The position numbers and the translations under genes are program-made. Shown piece after piece: positions 10,061 through 44,590 of a stretch of 64,000 nucleotides of DNA. A model generated the notes under the pieces. That model was not told the origin of the DNA, did no database searches, and was given only the letters and a program-made list of their open reading frames with translations. This DNA comes from Bacteroidota bacterium (GTDB lineage Bacteria; Bacteroidota; Bacteroidia; NS11-12g; UBA9320), in contig NVWV01000008.1 of the NCBI GenBank assembly GCA_002746305.1, positions 125,353-189,352 of the forward strand, read 5' to 3'. How positions within the stretch are numbered: position 1 is the stretch's first letter; the number at the start of each line of letters is the position of its first letter.

Positions 10061-10068
10061 AATAAAAA

Positions 10069-27843: not shown

Positions 27844-29340
27844 TTATCTGCCAAATAAAGAATATACTTTTTTAAGAATGTTATTAAATATTAAATTAAC
27901 ATCTTCAGAAACATTCATTTTCAATATTGCAAACACATATAGACCAAGAGTTAACGCAGGAGGTATGAATAAATTCATCAATTCAGATCCAAATTTTGGC
28001 GAATACTCTAACATAATAAAAATCATTACCCCTAGAACTCCTACTTTAAATAAATCCAAAGTAATTGGATCCAAATTATATTTATACTTGACATAGAAAT
28101 ATTTCAATAAATTGAATGCACTTAGTGATATCAAAGTGGAAATAGCAGCTCCATTAATCCCAAATAAAGGAATAAGCTTAATATTTAAAAAAACATTGAG
28201 AAAAGATAAACCTAATACAAAATAAAAAAAAACAACATACTTCGGAGACATTGAGAGTATTTGACTGTTCAAACCAGACGCCATATCAAGCAATTTAGCA
28301 ACGCCTAAAATCAGTATAACCATTTTTCCTGCCTTAAACTCTGAACCTCTCGGCATCATAGCAAAAAGAGGGTCAATAGCAGCCCATATAACCAAGAAGA
28401 CTCCAAGACCCAATACAAATAAATTGATAGATGATTTACGATATATGATATTTAGTTCATCCATGTTTTTAGATTGCCAATGAGAAGCAATAAGTGGTGT
28501 TGCAATAGCTGCAACAAGGGTAAGTGGTACCATCACGGTATTGGAAATAAACATTGCTACTGAATATATCCCATTATCATAAGTAGATTTTAATGTAGTT
28601 ACCATTACACTATCTATTCGAGTGGCTACCTGACTGCCTATAGACGCAAGAACACCAAAACTGGCAAATTTTAACATTCCCAATAATCTTGGTTTATTCA
28701 GGCTTCTTGTAAATTTAGTGTTAAGACTAATTTTACTGATACTTTTAATATATAAAAAGAAAATAACGATAAGTATTAAGTAGAACAACACTAAAACTAA
28801 ATAAATAATACTAAAATCAAATAGCTTAAAGTAATACCCAAGGCACAAAATGGGCAATATTATTTTTATAAGATTGTTTAAAAAATTGGGTATTGCTATT
28901 CTTTTCAGATTGGCAGAAAAACTACTTGAAATAGAACTAAACGACATAAAAATAGCGATAAGTGGGATAGCATTTAAAGCTTCCTTACTTACCTCCTTAT
29001 CTGTATTAAAAAAATCAAATATTGACTCATGAAACAAATAATACAGGACTATCAATGAAAAACCTGTTAGAATGGGCGGGATATATAAAAAGGTTAAAAA
29101 ACCTGAAACTTCTTTGTTTGAACCATTATACTTTGAAAAAAACTTAGAACTAACTGAGGAGAAACCAAAGAGTAAAAAAGGTAGGATAAGTATTGCAGAT
29201 TGCAACACAAATTGTATTTCCCCAAGTTGTTCAATTTCAAGAGTAAGCGGATAAATTATTATAGTGTTTACAAAACCTAATATTATTGAAAAATAACTTA
29301 CTACACTTGATTTAGCTCCTTGCCTTATAACTACACCCAT
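27844..29340 (-). CDS. polysaccharide biosynthesis protein / Wzx-like flippase (MOP superfamily)
   Basis: 498 aa with ~14 TM, at the head of the glycan operon. Confidence 0.55.
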   Translation of the reverse strand: MGVVIRQGAKSSVVSYFSIILGFVNTIIIYPLTLEIEQLGEIQFVLQSAILILPFLLFGFSSVSSKFFSKYNGSNKEVSGFLTFLYIPPILTGFSLIVLYYLFHESIFDFFNTDKEVSKEALNAIPLIAIFMSFSSISSSFSANLKRIAIPNFLNNLIKIILPILCLGYYFKLFDFSIIYLVLVLFYLILIVIFFLYIKSISKISLNTKFTRSLNKPRLLGMLKFASFGVLASIGSQVATRIDSVMVTTLKSTYDNGIYSVAMFISNTVMVPLTLVAAIATPLIASHWQSKNMDELNIIYRKSSINLFVLGLGVFLVIWAAIDPLFAMMPRGSEFKAGKMVILILGVAKLLDMASGLNSQILSMSPKYVVFFYFVLGLSFLNVFLNIKLIPLFGINGAAISTLISLSAFNLLKYFYVKYKYNLDPITLDLFKVGVLGVMIFIMLEYSPKFGSELMNLFIPPALTLGLYVFAILKMNVSEDVNLIFNNILKKVYSLFGR

Positions 29341-29346
29341 TTGTAT

Positions 29347-30084
29347 TTAAGGTTCTAAATCTAACAGAGCACTACTAATTCCTCCATCTATACTTATTAC
29401 GGAGCCATTTAGATAGCGATTGTTATGAGTTGTAAGCTGTAATACAAATTCAGCAATATGTTCTGGTTTCCCGATAATTTGTGAAGGATGCAGCTCTGCA
29501 AGTTCTGTCAGCAATTCTGGTTTGTTATCAAACCCAGCTTTTAACATTTTTGTACCTACGGCAGCAGGACTAATTGCATTTACAGTTATTTTTCCTTTAA
29601 ATTCTACTGCCAATGATTTTGTCATGCCTACTAGTGCCGACTTTGATGTAGCATATGCAAAGAAATTAGGCTTGGTAAGTTGACTATGTATACTCGCTAT
29701 GTTAACTACTTGACCCTCGTTCGCACAAAGCTGACTATAAAGACTTTTTATTAAAACAAAACCAGCAGATACATTCACATTCATGGTTTTTGTCCATTCT
29801 TCTATGGTGAAATCTTCAAAATCATTAACGATTTGAGTAGCTGCATTGTTTATCAAAATAGATACACTCTCACTTGATATTTCTGAGAATTTGACTTTTC
29901 TGTAAGTCTCATCCGAAACAAATTTATCGAGGTCAACGCTATGATAATTTGAGAAGTATGAATGGGAACATTCCCCTTGTAAATCTGATGCTATGACAAA
30001 GTGATTTGACTCATAGTACGCTTTACAAAGTTCAGACCCTATACCTCCATTTGCCCCAGATATATAAACTTGCTTTTGCTTCAT
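29347..30084 (-). CDS. SDR family oxidoreductase
   Basis: VYISGANGGIGSEL. YATSKSAL (YxxxK). Confidence 0.7.
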   Translation of the reverse strand: MKQKQVYISGANGGIGSELCKAYYESNHFVIASDLQGECSHSYFSNYHSVDLDKFVSDETYRKVKFSEISSESVSILINNAATQIVNDFEDFTIEEWTKTMNVNVSAGFVLIKSLYSQLCANEGQVVNIASIHSQLTKPNFFAYATSKSALVGMTKSLAVEFKGKITVNAISPAAVGTKMLKAGFDNKPELLTELAELHPSQIIGKPEHIAEFVLQLTTHNNRYLNGSVISIDGGISSALLDLEP

Positions 30085-30085
30085 A

Positions 30086-31009
30086 TTATTTAATATCTAA
30101 AAAACCATATAACAAACCAATGGCTTTATAACTTGTTTTATCTACTGCTTCTTTTGTGTTTGACCCATTATGACTTCCAAAAAAGCAGTTGTCCAAATCC
30201 ATCAATTCTGATGATACTGAAAGTGGTTCATTTTCAAAAACATCTAAACCCACACCTCCTATACTTCCTTTTCTTAGACAATCTATAAGTTTTTTTTCAT
30301 CAATCAACGGACCACGAGATACGTTGACAATAATAACTGTGCTCTTAAGTTTATTCAAAATATCAGCGTTTATCAAATGATGAGTAGAGTCATTTAATGC
30401 ACAAGCCAAAAACAAATAATCCAATTCTTCAATTCCTTCTGGAAATTTCTTTACGGGGATTCCAAACTCAGTTTTTGCATTTGGGTCATAGGCAATTATA
30501 TTCATTTCAAATGCTTTTAGTTTGCGACCTATTGCCTTTCCAATATCTCCAAAACCTATTATCCCTACCTTTTTGTATACTGTAGAATTGCCAACTGGTT
30601 TAACCCAATTTCCTTTTCTTACTTCAGAATCTATAATGTGTAGTTTTCTTGTGAGATTGAGCATCATACCTATGGCCACATCAGACACTTCATTGCCAAA
30701 CATACCAGGGGTATTAATAATCGGAATATTAAATTTCTTGCAAGCCTCAAAATCTACATTATCTACTCCTACCCCCCATTTTACAGCAGCTTTAAGATTC
30801 CCATCCACTCCCGCCTTAAAAACTCTTTCTGTGGCAGGATCATCCCCTATAATCCATCCATCCATATCAGGGAGAATCTCTATTAGTTCGTCCTCCGTCA
30901 TTACCTGTAGTACCTGAGGAGCTACAAGCTCAATATTTTTTTCTTCAAACAAATAACGATATGCGTCTATTTGTTTTAACATAGGTGGACAGGTTACTAG
31001 TATTTTCAT
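30086..31009 (-). CDS. D-isomer-specific 2-hydroxyacid dehydrogenase
   Basis: NAD site GIIGFGDIGKAIG. VSRGPLID. Catalytic GSH near the C-terminus. Confidence 0.75.
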   Translation of the reverse strand: MKILVTCPPMLKQIDAYRYLFEEKNIELVAPQVLQVMTEDELIEILPDMDGWIIGDDPATERVFKAGVDGNLKAAVKWGVGVDNVDFEACKKFNIPIINTPGMFGNEVSDVAIGMMLNLTRKLHIIDSEVRKGNWVKPVGNSTVYKKVGIIGFGDIGKAIGRKLKAFEMNIIAYDPNAKTEFGIPVKKFPEGIEELDYLFLACALNDSTHHLINADILNKLKSTVIIVNVSRGPLIDEKKLIDCLRKGSIGGVGLDVFENEPLSVSSELMDLDNCFFGSHNGSNTKEAVDKTSYKAIGLLYGFLDIK

Positions 31010-31701
31010 TTCACTTGACTATTATGAATGGCTTCTGCTATCAGATATTCTTGTTCTGTGTCTATGTCTTGAGCTTCTATCGGCTCTATTTCATGCATCA
31101 TGGGTCTATCTCCTATTCTATTGTGTTTTTGTCGCAGTATTTCTTCTGTAAACAAATAAATGCACGAATTTTCTTCAAACACAGGCGGCAAATCTTGAGT
31201 AGGTAGTAAGATATTTGGATTATGGTTCAAAGGCATCGACAGCTCATTCCATAACCTAGTCTGTAATCTCGTTACACTAAACAAGGAGTCATAAATGGGA
31301 TACTTCCCAAGAAATTTATCAATTGCGATATCTATACTCTCCTTGGTAAGCAAAGGATTGGTACTATGCGTTTGCAAATAAAACTTGGACGGTACTTGAC
31401 TTATGGTATTAAGCAGTACATCATTCATAGGAGTATCCCCAGGTCTAAGATTTTCTGGCCTTTCCAAAATTTTAACTGTTGGGTAATCCGATTTCAACCT
31501 ATCTACAATAGTTTCACTATCAGTGTCTACCACGACAAAGTCTATCTTTTCGCAAGATAAAAGTGTCTGTAGTATATGCTCAAACAACAACTTATCTCCA
31601 AATTTTCTATAATTTTTACCTGGCACCCTTTCCGAAGAATGCTTCATAGGTAGTATGGCTACGATATTATTCATTAAATATTTTTCAATATAGCTCTGCA
31701 A
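31006..31701 (-). CDS. acylneuraminate/Kdo-type cytidylyltransferase (CTP_transf_3 family)
   Basis: N-terminal VAILPMKHSSERVPGKNY parallels the NeuA/KdsB IPARxxSxRxPGKN motif. 4-nt overlap with the downstream dehydrogenase. Confidence 0.6.
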   Translation of the reverse strand: MQSYIEKYLMNNIVAILPMKHSSERVPGKNYRKFGDKLLFEHILQTLLSCEKIDFVVVDTDSETIVDRLKSDYPTVKILERPENLRPGDTPMNDVLLNTISQVPSKFYLQTHSTNPLLTKESIDIAIDKFLGKYPIYDSLFSVTRLQTRLWNELSMPLNHNPNILLPTQDLPPVFEENSCIYLFTEEILRQKHNRIGDRPMMHEIEPIEAQDIDTEQEYLIAEAIHNSQVK

Positions 31702-32306
31702 GGAGCTGCTTCTATTTTATCTAACTTGAGTGGTAAGCAGTATAACTCATACCATCCTTCATCAACATTTGTTAAATTTATTCCCTCTAAAAGAACTACT
31801 TTTTGAAGTAGCAAATTTCTATGTGTATCATTATGCTCAAAAAAACCTTGGATAGACAAATAATCTACTCCTATCAAATCTACATTTCTATCAGCAAGTA
31901 TTTTGGCACCATGCTTATCCAAAGCAACAAATTTTTCCTTAAATCCGTGATTGGGATTTGACCAAAGTAACGAATTAGTAGTTTTAAACAATACTTTTTG
32001 AGCATCCTCTGGAATACTAGATGCCAATTCTTTTGAAATAACACTAGCTGTTTTACAATCTTTTACAAAACATTTACCCACCAATTTACTCAATGGCATA
32101 GTGCTCATATCCTCTCCATTTTCTAAAAAATGTAAAGGAGCATCTACATGAGTACCAAAATGTACATCCATTTCTATTTTAGTAACATTGGCCTCAATGT
32201 CTCCACCTATTTTAAGCATAGGAGCTGTATTATATCCAAAACTATCTGGCCATTTCACCAAATCAGGAGTGATGGATAATGAAATATCTATAAGTTCATT
32301 ATTCAT
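31674..32306 (-). CDS. cyclase-family (kynurenine formamidase-like) metal hydrolase
   Basis: HFGTHVDAPLHF is the cyclase-family signature. Confidence 0.6.
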   Translation of the reverse strand: MNNELIDISLSITPDLVKWPDSFGYNTAPMLKIGGDIEANVTKIEMDVHFGTHVDAPLHFLENGEDMSTMPLSKLVGKCFVKDCKTASVISKELASSIPEDAQKVLFKTTNSLLWSNPNHGFKEKFVALDKHGAKILADRNVDLIGVDYLSIQGFFEHNDTHRNLLLQKVVLLEGINLTNVDEGWYELYCLPLKLDKIEAAPCRAILKNI

Positions 32307-33237
32307 TGTAATCTATAGGTTGTTGATTTAAAGAAGATTTTGCAATCACATTTCTTTTGGGAGGATAATAGTATTTGTTCCGTAGTTTTTCATTTAGGTT
32401 AACCTCTTTTTCCCTATATCCATTATATGTTCCAATAAACTGGTTGTACCTGAACATAAATATTTCTCCAAAAAATTTAGATATCACACGTTCTTCAATC
32501 GCCTGAGATATATCATGAAAAATGTTTATTACCAGAAGACGAGTCATTGTTAGAAAACCAAAAGAAGTGTCTGGATTTATACGTTTCAGTGCTATTGCCT
32601 CACGCATATACCTGTTTCTAATATTTGCAGCTTTTTCTTCATGCACATGTATAATAGTTGCATTACTTTCATACACTAATTTATACCCTTTCACTTGAAT
32701 TTTTTTTGCCCAATCTAAGTCTTCTAAGCCAGTGAGGAGCTCATCAAATGGTTGCTCTTTCCAAAGGCTTGTCCGCACTGCACAATTTGCATTATTACAA
32801 AAAGGTATTTTTTGATTATTGTTAGACTCTTCAGGAAACCACTGCTTAAAAATCTGATGCTCAGAATACTTATTCCTAGAATCTCCACGTTGCTTTCCAT
32901 ATACCAAGGCTACTTCTTTATCCTTTATAAATGGTGCTGCCATTTTGCTCAACCAATCTTCGTAAAGGGGATAAACGTGAGCACTCCCAAACAATAAAAT
33001 ATCTCCAGTAGCTGCTGCACAACCCACATTTAACGCATATCCAAATGAAAAATCCTCTGGCTTTATTTTAATAAGTTTTATATTAAACTTAGAAGCAATA
33101 GCAACAGTAGAATCTGTAGAACCGGAGTCTACGACTATAACTTCATGGTTTTTGTAATCTTGATGCTCTAACCCTGTAAGGAGCTTCCCAATATGCTCCT
33201 CCTCATTAAAGCACCTAATAACAATGGATATTTTCAA
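32299..33237 (-). CDS. glycosyltransferase family 2
   Basis: ISIVIRCFNEEEHI...VIVVDSGSTDST. GT-A fold. Confidence 0.65.
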   Translation of the reverse strand: MKISIVIRCFNEEEHIGKLLTGLEHQDYKNHEVIVVDSGSTDSTVAIASKFNIKLIKIKPEDFSFGYALNVGCAAATGDILLFGSAHVYPLYEDWLSKMAAPFIKDKEVALVYGKQRGDSRNKYSEHQIFKQWFPEESNNNQKIPFCNNANCAVRTSLWKEQPFDELLTGLEDLDWAKKIQVKGYKLVYESNATIIHVHEEKAANIRNRYMREAIALKRINPDTSFGFLTMTRLLVINIFHDISQAIEERVISKFFGEIFMFRYNQFIGTYNGYREKEVNLNEKLRNKYYYPPKRNVIAKSSLNQQPIDYNE

Positions 33238-33254
33238 GAATGCAAATTTAAGAA

Positions 33255-34472
33255 CTATTTACGTCTAAGGAACAATGATATTTTTCTAATAGTTGGTTGA
33301 TACATAAACATTCTCACTTTATCCATTAGGGATATTTTTTTTACAGGTATTTGGACAGATTTCAATATGTTAGCAATAGTATCAGAAGGCAACAGAGTAC
33401 CCTTTGGACTTAAGCAATTTCTGTATAAATATGTATCAAACTCTTTTTCATCTACTTCAGAAGCTTTAAATGACTTCACTTCTGATAGCAGTTCGTCAAA
33501 ATTTCGTGCAAGACGTACTACTACACCATCAATTTCTACATTATCAGTTTGAGATTCATTGTGAGGGTTATAATAGATTACTGGTATTTTAAAAAAAAGT
33601 GCTTCATGAATAAGTGAGCTAAATCTTGTAATTACCAAGCTAGAGTCTTTAAGTTGACTATGAATGCTTGATGCAGAACTAGATAAAACATTTTTAAATG
33701 CATCTAAGTTGCCCCTATCTCTAGGATGTTGAGAGATATTAAATGGGATATTTAACCCATCTAAAACATTGGATATATCAGACAGCCATGATTCTCTTAC
33801 CTCCTCATATATCCCATATGTAAAGTTGCAATTAATCAAAACACTATTTTTCTTATTTGAGCTTTCTTGTAGTAAGTGCTCATATCTAGGATTCCCTGTA
33901 ATAAATGATAGTTTGACATCTAACTTGCTCAAATACCATAATCCTTGTAAAAATACGGCATCAGAAAATTGCATTCGTCCCTTTGTACCAAAATCTATCA
34001 TAGACTCCTGTATACAAATAGTCGGCACATTAAGCTTTCTAGCCTTTAGTATTACATACTTCGCAAGCTTAGTCCAATCATTGAGAACTACTAAGATGTC
34101 AGGTTTGTATGCTTTTAATTTCGTCACAGAAAAAACCTCATAAGAAATACCCTCTTGGACTAGCTGAGTATCACTATTCTCCCGATCCATTTCTGGTATA
34201 AAAATTATAAATTCACTATCAGCAAATTTTGAAAGGATAGGCAGGACACTCTTCACCAATGTATCACTCTGAAGATAGAAGGCTATTTTATTTTGTCTTA
34301 CACTCTTAATATCATCTTCTATATGAATGGCCCAATTATAAGTAGGGCACAAATTTTCTATATCTTTAAAAGGAGCAAGTGTATTATTATTCTTTTCTAC
34401 AAATACAAGTTTATCGAATTGAACCGAGAGTAATGAAGTAGCACTTAGATTAGAATATTTTATCCCTTTCAC
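33255..34472 (-). CDS. hypothetical protein, possible GT-B/TagF-like transferase
   Basis: 405 aa. The C-terminal SSLIHEAL...PVIYYNP pattern resembles GT-B donor-binding halves. Weak. Confidence 0.35.
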   Translation of the reverse strand: MKGIKYSNLSATSLLSVQFDKLVFVEKNNNTLAPFKDIENLCPTYNWAIHIEDDIKSVRQNKIAFYLQSDTLVKSVLPILSKFADSEFIIFIPEMDRENSDTQLVQEGISYEVFSVTKLKAYKPDILVVLNDWTKLAKYVILKARKLNVPTICIQESMIDFGTKGRMQFSDAVFLQGLWYLSKLDVKLSFITGNPRYEHLLQESSNKKNSVLINCNFTYGIYEEVRESWLSDISNVLDGLNIPFNISQHPRDRGNLDAFKNVLSSSASSIHSQLKDSSLVITRFSSLIHEALFFKIPVIYYNPHNESQTDNVEIDGVVVRLARNFDELLSEVKSFKASEVDEKEFDTYLYRNCLSPKGTLLPSDTIANILKSVQIPVKKISLMDKVRMFMYQPTIRKISLFLRRK

Positions 34473-35473
34473 TCGTTCGAGATCTTATTCAAGATTTTTT
34501 TCCAAACCTCGTGTTGATTGTATTCCGTTTTTATTCTTTTCTGAATTGCCTGAATGTAAGGCAATTGCTTCTCAACATTATTCATATAATAAATACTTTT
34601 TGAAATATATTCATCTGGGTCCATTTCTAAAACTACTTCATTTTCATTATAAAAATCAAGCACGCCTTCATTATCCACCACACCAAATCTTCCTAATGAG
34701 AATACGGTCCAAAAACGATCCATAATACCTTTTTCTACTTTCCAAGAGGTTGCATGTATAATAGGACATAACCTTGATTTTTCAAGAAACTCAACGTGCT
34801 TACTTACTGAAACGGCACCTACTTTAGTGCCTCTACCCGCTAATATGGTGTTTTCACTCGCATCTAATACTGGTTGAAGATATCTCTCCCATTCCTTAAT
34901 ATTACCCCTAGTTGCTGTGCCCCATTTACTTCCTACAAAGGCTGCATCATATTCAAAACCGTTCATTATCGGCTCAGATTGCATAATCTTATCATAGGAC
35001 AATGTCATCGTCCCCCATGGTATCCAGAAAATTCTATCTGCATGTCTATTCACAATTTCAGATTTAACTGGAAACGTCTCTATATCAGATTTAGCTCCAA
35101 AAGCATAATATCGATATCCACTTTTAGCAAGATAATCCAACTTTTTATACTGAGGCCAATGCCAGTTTTTAAAGAACGTGAGTGGATCATCAGTCCAATC
35201 TCCTTCCGACTCTTTACTCGCATCAAATGAGGTTAATTTTTGGATTATAACACTATCTTTATGAGGCTTATATTTCTCAATCAACTCTATGCTATCAGGA
35301 GCATTCCAACATATAAAAATGGCAGGTTTTTTAAAATTTATTTTAGAAGCATTTATATGTTCTGCTTCATAGCCTAACTCATTAAAAGTAGTGGTCAAGT
35401 AATTCCAAGGCCAAAAATTAGTATGTTTCTTTTTGTAGAATGGTGGAATATAACCTAGGAGATAAACTTTCAT
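34469..35473 (-). CDS. hypothetical protein in glycan operon
   Basis: 334 aa, W-rich, no recognised motif. 4-nt overlap with the upstream gene. Confidence 0.35.
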   Translation of the reverse strand: MKVYLLGYIPPFYKKKHTNFWPWNYLTTTFNELGYEAEHINASKINFKKPAIFICWNAPDSIELIEKYKPHKDSVIIQKLTSFDASKESEGDWTDDPLTFFKNWHWPQYKKLDYLAKSGYRYYAFGAKSDIETFPVKSEIVNRHADRIFWIPWGTMTLSYDKIMQSEPIMNGFEYDAAFVGSKWGTATRGNIKEWERYLQPVLDASENTILAGRGTKVGAVSVSKHVEFLEKSRLCPIIHATSWKVEKGIMDRFWTVFSLGRFGVVDNEGVLDFYNENEVVLEMDPDEYISKSIYYMNNVEKQLPYIQAIQKRIKTEYNQHEVWKKILNKISNE

Positions 35474-36333
35474 TATTTACTTAACAAATTTAAAGTTTTT
35501 AAGAACCTATTGTTTCTTGAATCTACAGCGATAAAATTCCCCCATTCATTTTGTTTGATAGTAAATGGGTATTTTTCAATTCTTGAAAACGAATGTTTCA
35601 CACCATATCTAACGATTGGATCCCATATTGAGGCAAACACTTCATATCCCTCGCTAATCAATAAATCAACTATATCTTCCTTTGTATTTTCAGCCATTTT
35701 CCTATCTTCAAATTCAATTAATATTACTTCAGGGCTACATTTTTTAAAATTTAGACCTTTTAACACTTCATAATCTGCACCCTCTACATCTATTTTTAAA
35801 AACTGAACAGAGTCAATTTTTTTTTCTAGCAAAAAATCTGTGAGCGAAACAGTCTTAACAGTATCGGATTTTTGATGTTGTGGAGTAAAGTTAAGAGTTG
35901 AAGATATTCCTTTTGATTCAGGAGAAATAAAAAAATCTATAAAATTTCCGCTCTCACTTGTTACTGCTAAATTATGAAGTTTAAAATCACTAAACCTTCC
36001 TGTTAAAGAAATTAATTTTTCCGTCTTAATAGAGTCTTTATCTGGCTCAAATGCATGAACTTTCCAATTACCGTGAAGTAGAAATGGTAAAGAGCACTCT
36101 CCGAACATTGCTCCTACATCAAGCATAACTCCACCACTTTTCCCAATGTGTGAGAAAATCAATTTATTTTCATTTAAGTCACTTAATTCTGTTTCCCTAA
36201 ATTTCTGATTATCCCAATTAGCTGACTTTACATTGAACCACGATTTATAAACCCGTTCTTTAAAATACTGAGGATAGTCAAATCCCGATATATTGATAAT
36301 TTTTTCTCTTACAGATTTTGACAAAAATGACAT
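35473..36333 (-). CDS. FkbM-family methyltransferase
   Basis: MLDVGAMFGECSLPF...HAFEP SAM-binding pattern. 1-nt overlap. Confidence 0.5.
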   Translation of the reverse strand: MSFLSKSVREKIINISGFDYPQYFKERVYKSWFNVKSANWDNQKFRETELSDLNENKLIFSHIGKSGGVMLDVGAMFGECSLPFLLHGNWKVHAFEPDKDSIKTEKLISLTGRFSDFKLHNLAVTSESGNFIDFFISPESKGISSTLNFTPQHQKSDTVKTVSLTDFLLEKKIDSVQFLKIDVEGADYEVLKGLNFKKCSPEVILIEFEDRKMAENTKEDIVDLLISEGYEVFASIWDPIVRYGVKHSFSRIEKYPFTIKQNEWGNFIAVDSRNNRFLKTLNLLSK

Positions 36334-36481: not shown

Positions 36482-38974
36482 TTGTTGCAGATTATGACCA
36501 ATACTCAACTCTCTTTATTAAAAAATTATGTAAACATACAATCTGCTAAGAATTGGAGCATTTTACTGCTCATACTATTTTCTTTTACTAGTAAATCAAG
36601 TTTTAGTCAAGTAGATTCTATATTTTGGTTTGCAGCTCCAGAAATCTCAGAACACACTTCTAATTTTGATAAGCCAATAATTATTAGGATCACTACTTTA
36701 GATAAATCAGCTAAAGTAGTCATTACCCAGCCTGCCAACCCTTCTTTTGTTCAAATCACGGTAAACATTCCTGCATCATCAACTAAATCAGTTGATTTAA
36801 CATCATACATTAACAATATAGAAACAAGGCCTTCAAATGAGATTTTGAAGACAGGATTACTTATAAAATCAGACAATTACATCACTGCTTACTACGAGGT
36901 AGCTAGTCAACAATGTAATTGCAACCCTGAGATTTTTAGTTTAAAAGGCGGCAATGCACTAGGTGAATTATTCTATATTCCTACTCAAATGACTTATGAA
37001 AATTCAACTAGGTATTCACCACAAGCTACGAGCTCATTTGACATAGTTTCCACACAAGATAATAACCAAATTACTATCACTCCAAACAAGTCAATAGTTG
37101 GTCATGCTAAAGATATTTCATTTAGCATTACACTAAACAAAGGAGAAACATATTCAGCTGTTGCTACATCAAGATTAGGATCAGGGCATTTAGCAGGGTC
37201 AAAGGTCCAAGCAACCTATCCAATAGCAATTACAGTCAAAGATGATTTACTAGAGGGACTAGGACAGTGCAGAGATGTAGCAGGCGATCAAATAGTTTCA
37301 ATAAATAATATTGGCCTTGAATATATTGCCGTAAAAGGATTTCTCGATGGAAATAGAGAGTTAGCCACAATAGTAGCTACAGAACCCAATACGAAAATTT
37401 TTATAGGTTCCTCAGTTGTACCAAGTGCTATTCTAAATGAGGGCCAGTACTATGAGTTTAATCTTACGCAAAATTCAACTTATATTCGGAGTTCTAAACC
37501 CATATACGTATGGCATACTTCTGGTTTCGGTTGCGAATTAGCTGGAGCGATATTACCTCCTGTCAATTGCACTGGAACATTTTCCACATCAGTGGTCAGG
37601 TCTACACCAGATCAGTTAGGAATAGTACTGTTTACAAGTAAAGCAGGAATCAATTCATTTACAAACAATAGAGGTTTGACAATAAACTCTACAACCTTTA
37701 CATCTGTCCCTGGCACAAATAACCGATGGTATGCTGCGAGGATTGAGCTCACACAATCTCAAATTTCAGCCGGAGAAGTTCTTAATATTTCAAATCCCTC
37801 TCACCTATTTCATTTGGGATTTATAAACGGTGTTGCAGGTTCAGGAACTCGTTATGGCTATTTTTCTGATTATCGAAAAGTAACAGGTACAATTGAAAAT
37901 ATCATTGAGTGTAATCAATCTGAAATAGTGTTACAACACAAAAAGGGGAATTTAGATCAATGGAGTACTGGGAGTACTATTGATTCAATAATGCTCCAAA
38001 AAAGCGGCACATATTGGGTAAATTATACTATAAATAATTGCCCAGCATCTGACACCTTTCACGTGAGCATAACCAAAAACAATAGTCTTAATTTTATTGA
38101 TACAGTTCTTTGTAAAGGGGAAGTCCTAAAGCTTGATTTAACAAATAGCGAATTACTGTTAGACTCAAATAAATTGCAGGTAATAGACAATAAAATAGTT
38201 GCAGAAGGATTCTATTTTAGAACGGTTAAGAATTGTCCCAACGTAGATTCTTTCTACGTCTACCAATCAAAAATTGATTTAGATTTAGGTCCGGATAGCA
38301 CCTTCTGCGACAGCATAGAATTGGTCCTAAGTCTTTCCGACTTTGTCTCATACCAGTGGTCTACGGGTTCCGATTCTTCAAGTACAGTATTAATATCTGA
38401 AGGCACATTCTCAGTAATCGTAGAAGATGAATTCTCTTGTAAAGAGTCAGACACAATCAAAATCATAAAAGGAGTAGTGCCTAAAGTAAACTTGGGTCAG
38501 GACACCACCTTATGTAAAAGTTCAACAGCTTTTCTTGATGCTGGACATTTTGCGAAATATCAATGGAGCAATGGTTCAAATAAAAGATATTCTCCACTAA
38601 ATCAGTTTGGCGAAATTTGGGTTATGGTAACAAATGATGATGGATGCTTAGCTGCTGACACAATATTAATTTCCGAGTCTACCAAGACAAATTTTGATGA
38701 ACTATTAATTCCTAATTCTTTTAGTCCAGACCAAAATAATTTGAACGAGAATTTTCCTTTTTATAAATCAATAATTGAGGTTGAAGATTTTACTTTAAAA
38801 ATTTATAACCTATGGGGTCAACAAATTTTTGAAAGTCATTCCCCCTTAAATAATTGGAATGGCACTTTTCAAAATGAACCATCTGCACTTGGAACATACA
38901 TTTATACAATTAGTTGGAAAGATTGCAGCAATAGAATTAAAAACAAAAAAGGAGCATTCCACTTACTTAGATAA
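36482..38974 (+). CDS. large surface protein with T9SS type-B (gliding-motility-associated, CHU_C) C-terminal domain
   Basis: C-terminal LLIPNSFSPDQNNLNENF...IYNLWGQQIF...WNGTF...GTYIYTISW matches the type-B CTD. Ig-like repeats (DTxLCxG...). Confidence 0.65.
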   Translation: MLQIMTNTQLSLLKNYVNIQSAKNWSILLLILFSFTSKSSFSQVDSIFWFAAPEISEHTSNFDKPIIIRITTLDKSAKVVITQPANPSFVQITVNIPASSTKSVDLTSYINNIETRPSNEILKTGLLIKSDNYITAYYEVASQQCNCNPEIFSLKGGNALGELFYIPTQMTYENSTRYSPQATSSFDIVSTQDNNQITITPNKSIVGHAKDISFSITLNKGETYSAVATSRLGSGHLAGSKVQATYPIAITVKDDLLEGLGQCRDVAGDQIVSINNIGLEYIAVKGFLDGNRELATIVATEPNTKIFIGSSVVPSAILNEGQYYEFNLTQNSTYIRSSKPIYVWHTSGFGCELAGAILPPVNCTGTFSTSVVRSTPDQLGIVLFTSKAGINSFTNNRGLTINSTTFTSVPGTNNRWYAARIELTQSQISAGEVLNISNPSHLFHLGFINGVAGSGTRYGYFSDYRKVTGTIENIIECNQSEIVLQHKKGNLDQWSTGSTIDSIMLQKSGTYWVNYTINNCPASDTFHVSITKNNSLNFIDTVLCKGEVLKLDLTNSELLLDSNKLQVIDNKIVAEGFYFRTVKNCPNVDSFYVYQSKIDLDLGPDSTFCDSIELVLSLSDFVSYQWSTGSDSSSTVLISEGTFSVIVEDEFSCKESDTIKIIKGVVPKVNLGQDTTLCKSSTAFLDAGHFAKYQWSNGSNKRYSPLNQFGEIWVMVTNDDGCLAADTILISESTKTNFDELLIPNSFSPDQNNLNENFPFYKSIIEVEDFTLKIYNLWGQQIFESHSPLNNWNGTFQNEPSALGTYIYTISWKDCSNRIKNKKGAFHLLR

Positions 38975-39131: not shown

Positions 39132-39938
39132 CTAAAATAGCTGTGAAAACTTAAGGATTATCCGCTCAAAATATAAACGACTAAGGGACCAAGATCTAAC
39201 TACACCCATTTTAAAGTCTTTAATCGTTAGAAAAGGAAAAACCCTATTGGTTAACCTTGAATTCTTACTACCTGAATACACTTCAAAATCCAGACCATTC
39301 TTTAAGGAAATAGCCATTTTTATCCAAGCCAAAAAATGTCCATCTCCAAATGGTTTACTATACACAGTACCTTTCCCAAAATAATCCGGTCTGAAATGGT
39401 TCAAATCATTGTCTTCTGACGAAACATACTCATTACCAGTTATCTTGACACCCTTAAGTTTTTTCTCTTCATAATTTGCATCACAACCTAGCACAAGGAC
39501 ACGTTTATACCCAAGCAAATAAAGGACCTGCAAACTACATACACTTACATCACCAAAGTACCCCATATCTTCAAAGGAAACATTGGCTTTCATTCCTTTA
39601 ATAAGTTCATTAGTTGTAATAAACGTCACTTTATCAGATTTCACAATGTGTTCTCTTGTAGAAAAACATGAGTGATTCCAGTCTTCTGTACCATCTACAT
39701 CCCTAATAAAAAAACGCTTTATTTTCGAGTGTGTTATTAATCTATTCACATCTTCGTAAATATTCTCTAAAACACGAATATCAATAATCATATAATAGGT
39801 TGGATCAAACCCCCAATCTTCATATGCGATGTAAGCTCTGTTAAATGAAATTGTAATATCATTTTTCAAAGCAGCAACATCTATCTCATTCAAACTAGGG
39901 CCATTACCTATTAAGTAGACCGTTTTATTATTATTCAT
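39132..39938 (-). CDS. CstII-like (GT42) sialyl/nonulosonate transferase family protein
   Basis: N-terminal VYLIGNGPSLNEIDVAALKNDITISFNRAYIAYED parallels C. jejuni Cst-II (IIAGNGPSLKEIDYSRLPNDFDVFRCNQFYFED). Confidence 0.5.
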   Translation of the reverse strand: MNNNKTVYLIGNGPSLNEIDVAALKNDITISFNRAYIAYEDWGFDPTYYMIIDIRVLENIYEDVNRLITHSKIKRFFIRDVDGTEDWNHSCFSTREHIVKSDKVTFITTNELIKGMKANVSFEDMGYFGDVSVCSLQVLYLLGYKRVLVLGCDANYEEKKLKGVKITGNEYVSSEDNDLNHFRPDYFGKGTVYSKPFGDGHFLAWIKMAISLKNGLDFEVYSGSKNSRLTNRVFPFLTIKDFKMGVVRSWSLSRLYFERIILKFSQLF

Positions 39939-39940
39939 CT

Positions 39941-39958
39941 ATTTTCGGACGCGAAAAT
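39941..39958. promoter_or_regulatory. 7-bp inverted repeat attttcg-N4-cgaaaat in the 35-nt divergent intergenic region
   Basis: Read directly. It lies 3 nt from the GT42 start and 16 nt from the GT2 start. Confidence 0.3.
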
Positions 39959-39973
39959 AAATATTATTCACAC

Positions 39974-40894
39974 ATGATTCTAAGTATCATTATATGCACG
40001 TACAATAGAGTAAGGTTACTACCATATTGTATCGACAGTATTTTCAATCAAAACTATGATAAAAACGATATTGAAATAATATTTATAGACAATAATTCTA
40101 CCGATGGGTCCGGAGATTATTTTAAAAATCTAATGGATAAAGACCCTCGGTTTACTTTTAAATATTTCTTGGAAACAAAACAAGGTCTTTCCTATGCTAG
40201 AAATAGAGGGATACAAGAATCTATAGGTAAATATGTCGCTTTTGTGGATGATGATGCTATTATGAAAGAGGATTATTTTCAAAAAATATCAGATTTCATA
40301 TATCAACACCCAAAGTGCCAGGCATTTGGAGGGATAATAAACGTACACTTCGAGTCCACTCCTCCAAGGTGGGAAAACAAATATATTAATACCATGTTTG
40401 GATATTACTACCGTGGTAATGAGTCATTTATCTATAAGAACAGTGACTACCCTAGAGGATCAAATATGATTTTTCTTAAAACACTTTTTGACGAAGTAGG
40501 CATCTTTAATCCCAAACTCGGCAGAATAAAAAGAGGACTACAAGGCAATGAAGAAAAGGACCTATTTCAGCGTATCTATGCAAAAAGACACATCGTAAGA
40601 TATGACCCTAATTTAATAGTAGATCATATTGCACCACCAGAACGCACTGAAATCTCATTTGTAAAGCGTCAAGCTACTGGTACAGGAAATTCTGAAAGAA
40701 TTAGAACACAAGAACTAGGCCTTTTTTATTACATAAAAGCTCTGATCTTAGAAAGTTTAAAATGGATAGCGACCTTTTTATTAGCAATATTGTATTTCTT
40801 TAAACTTACCCCAATGAAGGGTATAATTTTAATTCGTTTTAGGTACTGGATTAGTTCAGGTTTGGTAGGTAAAATAGGTGTTTCTGAAATTTAG
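39974..40894 (+). CDS. glycosyltransferase family 2
   Basis: LSIIICTYNRVRLL...IEIIFIDNNSTDGS...FVDDDA (DxD). Confidence 0.7.
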   Translation: MILSIIICTYNRVRLLPYCIDSIFNQNYDKNDIEIIFIDNNSTDGSGDYFKNLMDKDPRFTFKYFLETKQGLSYARNRGIQESIGKYVAFVDDDAIMKEDYFQKISDFIYQHPKCQAFGGIINVHFESTPPRWENKYINTMFGYYYRGNESFIYKNSDYPRGSNMIFLKTLFDEVGIFNPKLGRIKRGLQGNEEKDLFQRIYAKRHIVRYDPNLIVDHIAPPERTEISFVKRQATGTGNSERIRTQELGLFYYIKALILESLKWIATFLLAILYFFKLTPMKGIILIRFRYWISSGLVGKIGVSEI

Positions 40895-40970
40895 TCATCC
40901 TAATACTTACTAATTCTCTTTGGAAATATCATATTTGTCTTACTTCTTTAAATAATAAATTATTGTAAAA

Positions 40971-43460
40971 ATGAAACTGACATTTAATAAATATAAAAAA
41001 CATTTATTGGCTATTTTAGTATTTGCCGTACTAACTTATGCATATATGCCACCAGTATTAAGCGGGAAAGCAATTCAACAAGGTGATGTAGTTAACTTCA
41101 AAGGGTCTGTCTCTGAAACTGATGCATATTATAAAAAAGAAGGTAAAACTCCGCTCTGGACGAATGCTATTTTTGGAGGAATGCCCACCTATCAAATAAG
41201 CACGAAAGGGCATAGTAACCCTGTAAAGGTGCTTATGAAGCCCTCATTTCATCACCCATTCAACAAATTATTTATTGGCTTGATATGTGCATACATCATG
41301 TTTTTAGCTTTTAAAGTAGAGCATTGGTTGGCTATTATTGGAGCATTTGCATTTACATATACTACAGGAAATCTTATTTTCTTAGAAGCCGGACACAACA
41401 CAAAAATGCAAGCAATTGCATACGCTCCATTGGTCTTAGCCGGACTAAAATTCTTACTAAACAAAAGGTATCTTCTAGGCTCCAATATCCTTGCAGTAGG
41501 GATAGCCCTAGAGCTGGTATCAAATCATATTCAGATATCATTTTACCTAGCTATAATGGTAACGATTTGGATGATAGCCGAATTTATCACACACCTTAAA
41601 AACAAAGACCTCAGTTCCTACTTTAAAGTTGTTGGGATATCCTTGTTGTTAGCCTTGTTGGGCATTGCTATTAGTTCTCCAAATATTCTTTTAACAAAAG
41701 AATATTCAGAATCTACTATTCGTGGCCAGTCAGATTTAACTATTTCTAAGGGAGTCAGCGGAGTGCAGGTTAAAGAAAACAGCGGCAGCGGATTAGACTA
41801 TAACTACGCCTTTCAATGGAGCAATGGCTGGCAGGATGTAATGGCTATTATCATACCAAACTATGCTGGAAGTGGAGGAGTTGTTGACCTTGGTAAAAAT
41901 TCTGCTTTTGAAGGAAAACTAAATAAGAAAGCTATCAAAAATTTTCCGTTTGCATATTGGGGGGAACTTCCATTCACGGTGGGCCCTGTTTACCTTGGTG
42001 CGAGCGTATTTCTTCTTTTTATTCTGGCATTTATCTTTATTCGAGGCCCCATTAGATGGTGGATACTTATAGCTTTTATTTTATCTCTAGTTATGTCAAT
42101 GGGTAAGAATAATTTTGCTTGGTTCAATGATTTCCTATTCAATCACTTTCCACTTTATAATAAATTCAGAGTACCAAGTATGTCACTTACCCTTGGTCAA
42201 TGGTGTGTGCCTCTCCTTGCTATCGTAGGATTATCTCACTTTATAAAGAGTACAGATAAAGAGAGACTTCAAAAGAGTCTTAAATTTTCAGGTATAATAG
42301 TAGGTGCTTTTTTAGTTCTACTTACTTTCATGAGCAGTATGTTTACAGACTTTAGTCATAAAGTGACTGATCCAATAACTGGAAATGTCTTAAAAGATTT
42401 TGATAAAGATATATACGACCAATATAAAATAGAAACCTACTTGCTAGAAGAGGCAAGATCAGACCTTATTCAGTCTGATGGATTAAGATCCTTATTCTTT
42501 GCCGGGACAGTATTTTTGCTGTTATGGTTGTTCATTAAAAATAAAGTTAAAAAAGAGTATTTAATTCTGGGAATTGGTCTTGCTATATTGGTTGATTTAT
42601 GGTCTATTGACAAAAGATACTTAAACAATGAAGATTTTGTAAAGAAAAGAGTCTATGAAAAGAAGGCAACTCCTTCCGCAGCTGATCTAGCCATCCTAAC
42701 AGACACCAGTTATTATCGAGTTTTGGATGTGAGAACTTCTAATGTAATGTCTAATTCAAAGGCAGCATTGTTCCATAAGTCGATAGGAGGTTATCACCCA
42801 GCAAAGCTTAGAAGATACCAAGAACTTTACGATTGGCATATTGTTAATGATATAAGAAACAACAGTTACGAAAATAGTTCTGTTCTCAATATGCTTAATA
42901 CTAAATACATAATTGGGAAAGACCAAAAAGGGGCAGATTTATATAGGATAAATTCAAACAATCTAGGTCATGCGTGGTTTGTAAATAACATTAATACTTT
43001 AAAAAACGCAGATAGTGTAATTCTTGCTTTGGCTACGTTTAATCCAAAGTCTACAGCAATACTTGAAGCAACACAATCTGATGTTTCATCGAAACAGCTA
43101 GAAATTGATAGTTCGGCCTCTATTTCGTTAATAAGTTATCATCCAGATAAAATGATTTACAAATCGAATAGTATTCACTCTGGATTCGCAGTATTTTCAG
43201 AAATCTTTTATAAAGATGGATGGGTAGCTTCAATAAACGGGAATCCTGCTACCATAGAAAATGCCAACTTTGTTTTAAGAGGACTTTCATTACCTAAGGG
43301 AGAAAACGAGATAATCTTTAGTTTTGAGCCGAGAACTTATTCAATTAGTAGAGGTATAATGCTAGGAGGTAATACAATCTTGTATTTACTGCTAATTGGT
43401 TCATTATTCTTTTGGATTAAAAAAGAGTTCTTTACCAAAAGCAAAGAGGCTAGAGCATAG
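40971..43460 (+). CDS. YfhO-like large polytopic membrane protein (putative glycan/glycolipid transferase)
   Basis: 829 aa with a many-TM N-terminal half, a large extracytoplasmic C-terminal domain and a final TM. Confidence 0.45.
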   Translation: MKLTFNKYKKHLLAILVFAVLTYAYMPPVLSGKAIQQGDVVNFKGSVSETDAYYKKEGKTPLWTNAIFGGMPTYQISTKGHSNPVKVLMKPSFHHPFNKLFIGLICAYIMFLAFKVEHWLAIIGAFAFTYTTGNLIFLEAGHNTKMQAIAYAPLVLAGLKFLLNKRYLLGSNILAVGIALELVSNHIQISFYLAIMVTIWMIAEFITHLKNKDLSSYFKVVGISLLLALLGIAISSPNILLTKEYSESTIRGQSDLTISKGVSGVQVKENSGSGLDYNYAFQWSNGWQDVMAIIIPNYAGSGGVVDLGKNSAFEGKLNKKAIKNFPFAYWGELPFTVGPVYLGASVFLLFILAFIFIRGPIRWWILIAFILSLVMSMGKNNFAWFNDFLFNHFPLYNKFRVPSMSLTLGQWCVPLLAIVGLSHFIKSTDKERLQKSLKFSGIIVGAFLVLLTFMSSMFTDFSHKVTDPITGNVLKDFDKDIYDQYKIETYLLEEARSDLIQSDGLRSLFFAGTVFLLLWLFIKNKVKKEYLILGIGLAILVDLWSIDKRYLNNEDFVKKRVYEKKATPSAADLAILTDTSYYRVLDVRTSNVMSNSKAALFHKSIGGYHPAKLRRYQELYDWHIVNDIRNNSYENSSVLNMLNTKYIIGKDQKGADLYRINSNNLGHAWFVNNINTLKNADSVILALATFNPKSTAILEATQSDVSSKQLEIDSSASISLISYHPDKMIYKSNSIHSGFAVFSEIFYKDGWVASINGNPATIENANFVLRGLSLPKGENEIIFSFEPRTYSISRGIMLGGNTILYLLLIGSLFFWIKKEFFTKSKEARA

Positions 43461-44590
43461 TGCAATTATCCCAAATATACGGTCTTCAAAAAATCAAACA
43501 AAAGCTACTCGCTAATGTAAGGGACAATAGGTTACCACATGCCCAGCTATTCCTAGGACCTGAGGGGAGTGGTAAACTTGGATTAGCATTGGCTCTTACA
43601 CAATATTTATACTGCTCGAATAAATCTGAAACAGACTCTTGTGGAGAATGTAGCTCTTGTCGTAAAATAAGTTCTCATACTCATCCTGATGTTCATTTCA
43701 CATTTCCCACTGTTGTGAAATCATCTGGGAAGGAACCCGTGAGTAACGATTTTTTGGAAGCATGGAGAAAAGAATTACAAGAAAGCATATATTTCAATAC
43801 GTCCGATTGGATTAAGAACATTGCTGACGACGAAAACAAGAAACCCAATATAACACGTAAGGAGACCCGCGATATTATCTCAAAACTCTCGCTCAAACCC
43901 TATGAAGGTGAAGCTAAAACACTCATAATCTGGATGCCTGAGTATTTAGCAGGACAAAGCAATGCTTTGCTAAAACTGATTGAAGAACCACCTCAAAAAA
44001 CGTATTTTATATTAGTTGCCGAAAATTCAGATGCCTTGCTAGCTACAATAACAAGTAGAACACAATTGGTAAAAATACCGAAGTATACTGAAGAAGAAAC
44101 TATGGCATTTTTACAAGCCAAGTATTCATTAGATCCTCAAAAGGCCGAACAAATTGCATATTTAGCAGAAGGAAACTTTAGAAAAGCAATTGATTTAGTA
44201 GAAAGTGTAGAGGACAACTATTCTGAAATGTTTAGAGACTGGATGTTAGCATGTTATAGCAACAACCTCAAAACGGTAAGCTCTCTTGTAGACTCCATGC
44301 ATAAACTAGGAAGAGTACAATTGCAAATATTCTTGACCAATGGATTGTCAATACTTCGAGAAAGCTTACTTTATAAAACCATTGATAACTACACTATAAA
44401 AGCAGAAAAAGACCAACAAGATTTTATTCGGAAATTTTCAGGTACGTTAAATGCTGCGTGTATTGAAAAGAGTTATGAGCAAATCAATGAAGTAATTTAT
44501 CATATTCAGCGAAATGCAAATGCTAAGATTGCCATTTTTAACCTTTCTCTAAACTTGAGGTATAACTTTGTACGTAAGAAAGATGCTTAA
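43460..44590 (+). CDS. holB: DNA polymerase III subunit delta'
   Basis: HAQLFLGPEGSGKLGLA. Zinc module CGECSSC. SHTHPDVHF. Confidence 0.75.
   Translation: MQLSQIYGLQKIKQKLLANVRDNRLPHAQLFLGPEGSGKLGLALALTQYLYCSNKSETDSCGECSSCRKISSHTHPDVHFTFPTVVKSSGKEPVSNDFLEAWRKELQESIYFNTSDWIKNIADDENKKPNITRKETRDIISKLSLKPYEGEAKTLIIWMPEYLAGQSNALLKLIEEPPQKTYFILVAENSDALLATITSRTQLVKIPKYTEEETMAFLQAKYSLDPQKAEQIAYLAEGNFRKAIDLVESVEDNYSEMFRDWMLACYSNNLKTVSSLVDSMHKLGRVQLQIFLTNGLSILRESLLYKTIDNYTIKAEKDQQDFIRKFSGTLNAACIEKSYEQINEVIYHIQRNANAKIAIFNLSLNLRYNFVRKKDA

Follow-up and report, generated by a model that had tools for sequence, protein, structure and literature searches.

A recurring cytidylyltransferase and D-2-hydroxyacid dehydrogenase gene module in surface-glycan loci: a tentative route to CMP-activated 2-ulosonic acids without an aldolase-type synthase

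The question addressed here is what is synthesized by a set of neighbouring genes found in a window of 64,000 nucleotides, the whole stretch of DNA analysed, which belongs to a Bacteroidota bacterium of marine origin (a metagenome-assembled Bacteroidia genome; assembly GCA_002746305.1, contig NVWV01000008.1, positions 125,353 to 189,352). The first-pass annotation of this window had drawn attention to three overlapping minus-strand genes, whose products it named as a D-2-hydroxyacid dehydrogenase (2HADH), a cytidylyltransferase (CTase) of the CMP-sugar type and a hydrolase of the cyclase family, KynB-like and metal-dependent. The Pfam and NCBIfam searches agreed with all three families, the CTase being NeuA-like. 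From the comparison of related loci we tentatively propose that the CTase and the 2HADH are parts of a module which makes a cytidine monophosphate (CMP)-activated 2-keto-aldonic (2-ulosonic) acid without a NeuB/KdsA-type aldolase synthase, the acid being destined for a surface glycan that is linked to a lipid and flipped, a reading that we consider quite possible but somewhat short of an even chance.

A scan with an alignment of the CTase, restricted to one genome per species, gave 80 loci, whose open reading frames (ORFs) were compared by tblastn and clustering; 67 of these were usable, having at least 2.5 kb on both sides of the CTase gene. The 2HADH gene adjoined the CTase gene in 40 of the 67 usable loci (42 of all 80), and among these 40 a family-2 glycosyltransferase with a modified SxH motif (SxH-type GT2) was found in 39, a short-chain dehydrogenase/reductase (SDR) in 32, and the cyclase in just 8. 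The gene order GT2-[cyclase]-CTase-2HADH-SDR was almost always kept and recurred in Bacteroidota, in Alphaproteobacteria, in one cyanobacterium and in one metagenome-assembled genome (MAG) of the Chloroflexi (Anaerolineae). Since the same order recurs across four phyla, the arrangement is not a product of chance. Among the carriers were Pedobacter, Mucilaginibacter, Larkinella, Spirosoma, Saprospiraceae, Chitinophagales, MAGs labelled Rhizobium or Asaia, Niveispirillum, Azospirillum, Roseibium, Hyphomicrobiales, an Oscillatoriales cyanobacterium and the Anaerolineae MAG. Searches seeded with the GT2 or with the cyclase retrieved the same module, and the GT2-seeded loci L089-L091 also carried FkbM and flippase genes. 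Thus the conserved unit consists of the SxH-type GT2, the CTase and the 2HADH, usually together with the SDR, and the cyclase is an accessory; the trio that had been taken as the unit is not conserved as such. Homologues of the CTase number more than 8000 and those of the GT2 more than 7400, and no description of the module was found in the literature searched.

In the remaining 38 of the 80 loci the CTase orthologue, about 60% identical to the enzyme of the window, was solitary and stood in conserved housekeeping synteny. No GT2, 2HADH or MptE-like gene was found within 10 kb of these solitary CTases. Their neighbours (in L010, L018, L021, L032, L003 and about 33 others) were either a Ham1-like gene and a gene for an acidic protein, or an enoyl-CoA hydratase gene and a thioredoxin-reductase-like gene.

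The CTase of the window (31006..31674, minus strand, 222 amino acids) belongs to PF02348 (CTP_transf_3, 2.6e-26; 93.2 bits at a gathering score of 22.6). The N-terminal P-loop-like, CTP-binding motif PxxxxSxRxxxKN is present, with PMKHSSERVPGKNYR invariant across the CTase family, whose members are about 60% identical across phyla. The best NCBIfam model was PseF (TIGR03584), with 65.6 bits against a cutoff of 205.7, and the best PDB match was NeuA, at no better than 6.4e-08. The KdsB models NF003952, NF009905 and NF003950 gave 26.9-29.7 bits against cutoffs of 193-255, and the region of the QGDEP-type motif of KdsB reads LQTHSTNP, as in NeuA-like enzymes; the enzyme is, as had been anticipated, not a plain KdsB paralogue. 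Membership of the NeuA, PseF or LegF families was also rejected, the scores being below the equivalog cutoffs and a NeuB-type synthase motif not being present nearby. A NeuB or KdsA motif or gene family was found neither in the window nor in any of the 80 CTase-centred loci. We know of no characterised PF02348 enzyme that activates anything other than a 2-ulosonic acid. For the ulosonic acids themselves, CMP derivatives are the only form observed to date (10.64898/2026.04.20.719630). The expectation of an unusual CMP-linked chemistry, with no NeuB/KdsA synthase in the combination, was sustained, but not in the form of a CMP-activated plain hydroxy acid, which would have no anomeric centre to transfer and for which the locus holds no acyl-activating enzyme.

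The 2HADH (30086..31009, minus strand) passes the tests for its superfamily (PF02826, 2-Hacid_dh_C, 2.5e-51 and 174 bits; PF00389, 54.6 bits), and retains the catalytic residues R232, E261 and H280, the GFGDIG site for NAD and the NAD-type D175. Enzymes of the D-2HADH family interconvert D-2-hydroxy acids and 2-keto acids. The protein lies below every NCBIfam equivalog cutoff; the best model was that of phosphoglycerate dehydrogenase (PGDH, TIGR01327) with 198.5 bits against a cutoff of 454. The Arg-Ser motif which binds the phosphate in PGDH is replaced by an invariant G55-D56-D57, the VRS of 1wwk aligning to GDD, and this replacement suits a neutral, polyhydroxylated substrate. The identity of a D-3-phosphoglycerate dehydrogenase (SerA) was rejected on account of the low score and the absent Arg-Ser motif. 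The family also contains 2-ketoaldonate and 2-ketogluconate reductases (GhrB/TkrA; PMC11837542). The module enzyme resembles these in its fold, in its Arg-Glu-His triad and in the aldonate/2-keto-aldonate pair that we propose for it, and differs in the proposed oxidative direction, in the NAD-type Asp in place of NADPH-type residues and in the GDD motif. The adjoining SDR (29347..30084, minus strand, PF13561 4.7e-36) is of the classical type and likewise carries an NAD-type Asp34; the Asp residues that mark an NAD preference in both dehydrogenases fit oxidative steps. Its top NCBIfam matches were glucose 1-dehydrogenase and aldose dehydrogenase, all below cutoff, and the top matches in the PDB include the glucose 1-dehydrogenase 3vtz. 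In other lineages the SDR is replaced by a zinc-dependent alcohol dehydrogenase (Zn-ADH) with a glucose-dehydrogenase C-terminal (Glu_dehyd_C) domain.

The cyclase-family protein (31674..32306, minus strand, PF04199 1.5e-17) shares with KynB the fold and a complete binuclear metal site, HxGTHxDxPxH (H49, H53, D55, H59) together with H162 and E174, which is conserved among the module cyclases. Its relatives in the PDB are kynurenine formamidases and proteins described as metal-dependent hydrolases (about 1e-21 to 1e-29). However, its score of 140.7 bits with the arylformamidase (KynB) model TIGR03035 lies below the cutoff of 223.05, its neighbours are glycan genes, the annotated parts of the window contain no gene of the kynurenine pathway, and lactonase-type enzymes stand in its place elsewhere; the KynB identity was rejected on the score and on the lack of a tryptophan/kynurenine gene context. 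Where the cyclase is present in the module, it always lies between the GT2 and the CTase. Other loci have in its stead a metallo-beta-lactamase (MBL)-fold domain (Lactamase_B_2, in L095) or an SMP30/gluconolactonase (in L046, in L079, where it adjoins the GT2, and on a Sulfitobacter plasmid, L100). Three unrelated hydrolase families appear to fill the optional hydrolase role, one of them being the classical sugar-lactonase family, and the SMP30 lactonases in the place of the cyclase point to a sugar lactone intermediate. The cyclase subfamily itself is not specific to the module, since 5 of 6 sampled homologues at about 44% identity lay outside it. One of these non-module homologues stands beside enolase-superfamily (MR_MLE) fragments and an SDR (L093, 5808-8365), another beside an aldolase of the DHDPS family (L092, 7001-9061); these neighbours are of the kind seen in sugar-acid catabolism and the subfamily may perhaps act as a lactonase more generally, which we treat as anecdotal.

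The simplest pathway in which each conserved enzyme has a task can be outlined as follows, its catalytic steps being, as we infer them, all conditional. The SxH-type GT2 would hydrolyse a common nucleoside diphosphate (NDP)-sugar to the free reducing sugar, in the manner of PseG, NeuC and LegG; this is the weakest step. The NAD-type SDR, or the Zn-ADH in other lineages, would then oxidise C1 to give the aldono-lactone, which the cyclase, MBL or SMP30 enzyme would open to the aldonate. The opening step would be dispensable, because lactones also hydrolyse spontaneously. The NAD-type 2HADH would turn the aldonate into the 2-keto acid by oxidising the hydroxyl at C2, which is D-configured; this step is suggested by the chemistry of the 2HADH family and by the invariant adjacency of the enzyme to the CTase. 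The CTase, as expected from its family, would convert the product to the CMP-ulosonate. Finally, an MptE/Maf-like protein encoded at 39132-39938, a 405-amino-acid protein encoded at 33255-34472, or both, would transfer the ulosonate to the glycan, and a Wzx-type flippase would export it. Candidate sugars with the required D-configured C2 hydroxyl are glucose, galactose, xylose, L-rhamnose and glucuronic acid.

Several variant loci bear on this order of events. Locus L086, on a contig that bears the label Woesearchaeota, combines a CTase of the KdsB type (279 bits, above the cutoff of 255) with a fusion of the SxH-type GT2 and a Zn-ADH, a cyclase 44% identical to that of the window, and a GDD-type 2HADH; it also encodes a flippase, a Wzy protein and a protein with a weak likeness to BFO_1060. 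The gene order GT2::ADH, cyclase, 2HADH is that of the proposed reactions, which agrees, as does the dominance of GT2::dehydrogenase fusions, with consecutive early steps. In the same locus a B12-binding radical SAM enzyme (9454-10941) follows the BFO_1060-like protein, which has 585 amino acids, and may be a further sugar-tailoring enzyme. Another locus (L095) contains a LIC12162-family protein, an MBL::GT2 fusion, the CTase, the 2HADH and the SDR. Next to them, and separate from the module, lie genes for aminotransferases, a NeuB and a further CTase. The presence of a separate NeuB and a second CTase indicates that the module CTase is not the nonulosonate CTase and has a different substrate. 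It may be noted that two CMP-sugar pathways thus lie in one glycan locus (1659-10441), the NeuB, a CTase of 257 amino acids and the aminotransferases on one side and the module on the other, joined by the LIC12162-family protein. The plasmid of Sulfitobacter sp. D7 carries genes for an SMP30/gluconolactonase, an SDR, a GT2 (SGH), the CTase, a 50%-identical GDD-type 2HADH, GalE and a giant MptE-like protein. Taken over all loci, non-orthologous displacement was seen at three steps, namely at the CTase (NeuA-like or KdsB-type), at the second dehydrogenase (SDR or Zn-ADH) and at the hydrolase (cyclase, MBL or SMP30).

The SxH-type GT2 of the window (32299..33237, minus strand, PF00535 1.4e-24) is unusual in having an invariant S85-A-H87 where a DXD motif would be expected, SAH aligning to the DSD of TarS. 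It retains the DSGSTD motif for nucleotide binding and the catalytic base of the ED motif. The conserved residues are S85, H87, D173, H197 and H199, of which, judged from the alignment, H197 and H199 could substitute for the missing DXD in a putative metal binding. A structure model (AlphaFold, predicted local distance difference test score, pLDDT, of 80.7) showed a standard GT-A fold, and the fold search retrieved as closest folds only generic GT-A GT2 enzymes, with no functional discrimination. A profile search over 1.84 billion cluster representatives gave 1068 relatives at E<1e-30, and fusions were surveyed in the best 150 of these, among which 48 were long proteins. Zn-ADH was the partner in 24 of the 48 (GT2::Zn-ADH, fourteen of which match the glucose-dehydrogenase C-terminal domain), the cyclase in 5 (GT2::cyclase), the CTase in 3 (GT2::CTase or CTase::GT2), the 2HADH in 1 (GT2::2HADH) and an MBL domain in 3 (MBL::GT2). 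Since every component of the module is fused to the SxH-type GT2 somewhere, the fusions are strong evidence for a single pathway.

The alternative that survives best keeps the same oxidative core, that is, the 2HADH followed by CMP activation, and regards the SxH-type GT2 as a dedicated transferase of the ulosonate or of the acceptor sugar, the aldose or aldonate coming from general metabolism. The intact GT-A fold with its DSGSTD motif and ED base is what a transferase would have, the closest structures (TarS, TarP, WrtF and PcManGT) are true transferases, and the GT2 nearly always accompanies the CTase. Moreover, the DXD motif is lost also in metal-independent GT-A enzymes that use CMP-sugars, such as those of GT42. 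Nevertheless, we consider this alternative unlikely. The SxH-type GT2 is 50-59% identical across phyla and as conserved as the pathway enzymes, which is atypical of acceptor-specific transferases in variable loci and is more easily reconciled with a small-molecule substrate than with an acceptor that varies. Its main fusion partner is the second dehydrogenase, suggesting consecutive small-molecule steps, and the other candidates for the transfer (the MptE-like and the LIC12162/BFO_1060-like proteins) vary by locus, as expected of a linkage-specific step. The conserved H87, H197 and H199 could bind a metal as in DxH-type NDP-sugar enzymes, which favours an NDP-sugar as the substrate.

The proposed pathway has in turn a number of observations against it, which are best considered together. 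We know of no GT-A enzyme that acts as a dedicated NDP-sugar hydrolase, and no lactonase of PF04199 was described in the literature searched. The similarity of the SDR to aldose dehydrogenases is generic and not diagnostic, and the second dehydrogenase is missing next to the module in seven alphaproteobacterial loci. No diagnostic alignment column separated the module CTases from the solitary ones; therefore the substrate of the CTase may be available independently of the enzymes encoded next to it in the module, or else the partner genes of the solitary CTases may lie elsewhere in the genome. On a plasmid of Acuticoccus sp. I52.16.1 (NZ_CP094833.1, L098, 6210-10662) the partners of a 43%-identical CTase are an HpcH/HpaI-type aldolase, a HAD hydrolase, an epimerase-like oxidoreductase and a 2HADH which lacks the GDD motif and has been annotated as phosphoglycerate dehydrogenase. 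This locus is a different, aldolase-based variant and may hold a pyruvate-aldolase route to a CMP-2-keto-3-deoxy acid; because of this pairing the adjacency of CTase and 2HADH is not in every case a sign that the keto group comes from the 2HADH. Finally, no polysaccharide with a hex-2-ulosonic acid was found in the literature searched, and to our knowledge none is known to contain this sugar.

Some of these observations could be accommodated by assuming that the substrate of the CTase is an ordinary ulosonic acid from another source, for example the Kdo of the lipopolysaccharide (LPS) pathway, and that the 2HADH, SDR, cyclase and GT2 carry out a separate tailoring such as the formation of a glycerate- or lactate-type hydroxy-acid substituent, which comes close to the idea of the first-pass annotation. 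This would agree with the 38 solitary CTases among the 80 and their lack of a distinguishing residue, with the KdsB-type score of the module CTase in L086 and with the nearest characterised relatives of the 2HADH, which act on glycerate, hydroxypyruvate and phosphoglycerate. On the other hand, the CTase and 2HADH genes are adjacent, and often overlap, in every module locus, each is also found fused to the SxH-type GT2, and the module occurs in MAGs labelled, from their binning, as Anaerolineae and Woesearchaeota, lineages in which the synthesis of LPS or Kdo is not expected. The conserved module contains no acyl-activating enzyme (ligase, ATP-grasp or acyltransferase), the Arg-Ser phosphate site of PGDH is exchanged for GDD, and the SMP30 lactonases that replace the hydrolase point to a sugar lactone. 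We regard separate tailoring as decidedly unlikely.

A pathway similar to that of TarI/TarJ or Bcs1, in which the dehydrogenase would reduce a ketose phosphate to the alditol phosphate and the CTase would form a CDP-alditol for a teichoic-acid-like polymer, is very unlikely. The pairing or fusion of a dehydrogenase with a cytidylyltransferase and the existence of Zn-ADH and SDR variants do recall these CDP-ribitol-forming systems, TarS is the closest match of the SxH-type GT2 by sequence, and a YfhO-like protein is encoded nearby. The CTase, however, is of the NeuA/KdsB type (PF02348) and not of the IspD/TarI or TagD type, the conserved partners of the module do not include a polyol-phosphate transferase (TagF/TarL-like), and both dehydrogenases look NAD-type, i.e. 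oxidative; TarI/TarJ and Bcs1 combine an IspD-like enzyme with reduction of sugar phosphates and have neither a 2HADH nor a lactonase, so that the invariant 2HADH and the lactonase-type hydrolases would be left unexplained. The last alternative, a cyclase acting as a de-N-formylase or de-N-acetylase on an amino-ulosonic acid or its CMP derivative, as had been suggested for the donor at this locus, has in its favour the kynurenine formamidases as closest characterised relatives and the intact binuclear metal site, but is hardly credible, since the conserved module has no aminotransferase, N-acyltransferase or NeuB, the cyclase is missing in 32 of the 40 module loci and replaced in others by SMP30-type lactonases or metallo-beta-lactamase-type hydrolases, its homologues of the same identity lie mostly outside the module, and its score is below the arylformamidase cutoff.

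The proposed route to a CMP-ulosonate can be compared with two groups of known pathways. Like the CMP-Kdo and nonulosonate pathways (KdsA/KdsC/KdsB; NeuC/NeuB/NeuA; Pse, Leg), it would end with a PF02348 CTase giving a CMP-2-ulosonic acid, a free reducing sugar is probably released early from an NDP-sugar, and the genes lie in surface-glycan loci with Maf/MptE-like or LIC12162-like candidate transferases. Unlike these, the module has no NeuB/KdsA synthase and the CTase fails the family cutoffs of KdsB, PseF and NeuA; in our proposal there is no phosphoenolpyruvate (PEP) condensation and no 3-deoxy carbon, and the 2-keto acid would come from the dehydrogenation of an aldonate. For the first step, the SxH-type GT2 would resemble PseG, NeuC and LegG as a glycosyltransferase-fold enzyme that transfers a sugar to water, but the fold of these three is of the GT-B or epimerase kind, whereas here hydrolysis is predicted for a GT-A fold with SxH in place of DXD. 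With the oxidative, non-phosphorylative pathways of aldoses (glucose dehydrogenase/gluconolactonase, XylB/XylC) the module would share an NAD-dependent SDR or Zn-ADH acting at C1 and an optional lactonase, and SMP30/gluconolactonase-family genes are present in some module loci. It would differ from them in being anabolic, the aldonate being oxidised at C2 and cytidylylated instead of dehydrated and cleaved, and in that the lactonase would belong to PF04199, for which no precedent was found in the literature searched.

We know of no CMP-activated sugar whose synthesis does not involve the condensation of PEP with a sugar. If the proposal is true, the module would represent a second biosynthetic logic for such sugars, with new activities for three folds: a GT-A hydrolase, a PF04199 lactonase and a PGDH-like aldonate 2-dehydrogenase. 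It would also supply an acidic monosaccharide new to bacterial glycans which has the same mass as a hexuronic acid, so that glycomics based on mass only would count it as HexA. The wider claim, that an aldolase-independent route to CMP-2-ulosonic acids, probably to a hex-2-ulosonic acid isobaric with hexuronic acid, uses a GT-A hydrolase, a KynB-type, MBL or SMP30 lactonase and a PGDH-like keto-acid maker and occurs widely across Bacteroidota, Proteobacteria, cyanobacteria and Chloroflexi, and also in some MAGs of archaeal or CPR-like affiliation, is possible, with the balance leaning against it in this full form. The module, which would carry out CMP-ulosonate biosynthesis without a synthase, is widespread and is uncharacterised in the literature searched. 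By the curated cutoffs the proteins belong only to the superfamilies of KdsB, PseF, SerA and KynB. In the databases the members are labelled as CMP-N-acetylneuraminic acid synthetase, phosphoglycerate dehydrogenase, arylformamidase and rhamnosyltransferase, and the result at the family level alone corrects a widespread misannotation.

The proposed transfer step has two candidates in the window. The first, an MptE-like/Maf-type protein (39132..39938, minus strand), is a candidate CMP-ulosonate glycosyltransferase. Its match to PF01973 (2.3e-06, 28.0 bits) is below the gathering score of 34.6, but it matches the hidden Markov model of the MptE-like family of the module loci at 8.9e-38, and a representative of that family passes PF01973 with 49.6 bits. 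Of 43 module loci, 29 encoded an MptE/Maf-like protein, whereas all 38 loci with a solitary CTase were without one. The locus of the window lacks the flagellin context of Maf (MptE-like, DUF115) proteins. Maf/DUF115 enzymes are reported to use CMP-Neu5Ac and CMP-Kdo as donors (bioRxiv 10.1101/2020.06.03.131540). The second, the 405-amino-acid protein (33255..34472, minus strand), is a candidate CMP-sugar transferase; it matches TIGR04396, a model for surface carbohydrate biosynthesis proteins, at 1.4e-4, below cutoff, has no Pfam match and has homologues in L007 and L046. In a comparable position the LIC12162-like protein is found in L095 and the BFO_1060-like protein in L086. The single-sequence structure model of the 405-amino-acid protein (pLDDT 33) was discarded.

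The trio is part of a tightly packed minus-strand operon of nine genes (36333..27844), whose junctions range from an 8-nucleotide overlap up to a 17-nucleotide gap. The three genes were called as ORFs 30086-31009, 31006-31701 and 31674-32306. The overlap of 4 nucleotides between CTase and 2HADH given in the first-pass annotation is present in the sequence as ATGA, and the translational coupling described there stands. The overlap of 28 nucleotides between CTase and cyclase proved to be an artefact of taking the longest ORF, which starts with TTG at 31701. The start of the CTase is the ATG at 31674, since the identical database protein has 222 amino acids and every homologue begins there, and the real overlap is the single nucleotide of TAATG. 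No minus-strand terminator-like site was found inside the operon by the terminator scan, and the counts of the promoter/terminator scan were not above the shuffled expectation. The genes encode, in order, an FkbM methyltransferase, a GT-B-like protein, the 405-amino-acid protein, the GT2, the cyclase, the CTase, the 2HADH, the SDR and the flippase. The FkbM-family methyltransferase (35473..36333, minus strand, PF05050 1.2e-18, TIGR01444 1.3e-25) has homologues that recur in related loci. The GT-B-like protein of 334 amino acids (34469..35473, minus strand), a variable glycosyltransferase candidate with a weak Glyco_trans_1_2 match (PF13524 4.6e-06), has a homologue only in L007, the closest relative, among the related loci compared. 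The Wzx-type (MATE-like) polysaccharide flippase at the end of the operon (27844..29340, minus strand, PF01554 2.8e-06, TIGR00797 7.8e-11) has homologues in related loci.

The glycan locus has two halves, the operon at 27844-36333 and the genes at 39132-43460. Between them lies a plus-strand gene (36482-38974) for a protein of 830 amino acids with an IgGFc_binding-like domain and a CHU_C signal for type IX secretion, i.e. a cargo of that system. Besides the MptE-like protein, the second half encodes an ordinary family-2 glycosyltransferase (39974..40894, plus strand, PF00535 4.2e-31), which is 25-33% identical to the GT2s of a family recurring in module loci (fam27, in L005, L006, L008 and others), and a membrane protein of 829 amino acids with a YfhO-like C-terminus (40971..43460, plus strand; PF09586 1.7e-07, just above cutoff and over the C-terminal 70 residues only). 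The latter may, from its position, be part of the same glycan system. The GT2 gene directly before the gene of a YfhO-like membrane protein (39974-43460) recalls the GT2/flippase/YfhO arrangement of extracytoplasmic polymer glycosylation in Firmicutes and is unusual for Bacteroidia. In the whole 64-kb window neither tRNA genes nor Rfam families at gathering score were found. Both flanks of the glycan locus carry housekeeping genes (adk and obg; holB-like, recR, uppP and leuS), and right after the gene for the DNA polymerase III delta'-like protein a plus-strand gene for a PIG-L-family deacetylase overlaps an ATP-grasp (ATPgrasp_Ter/PylC-like) gene (44568-46249).

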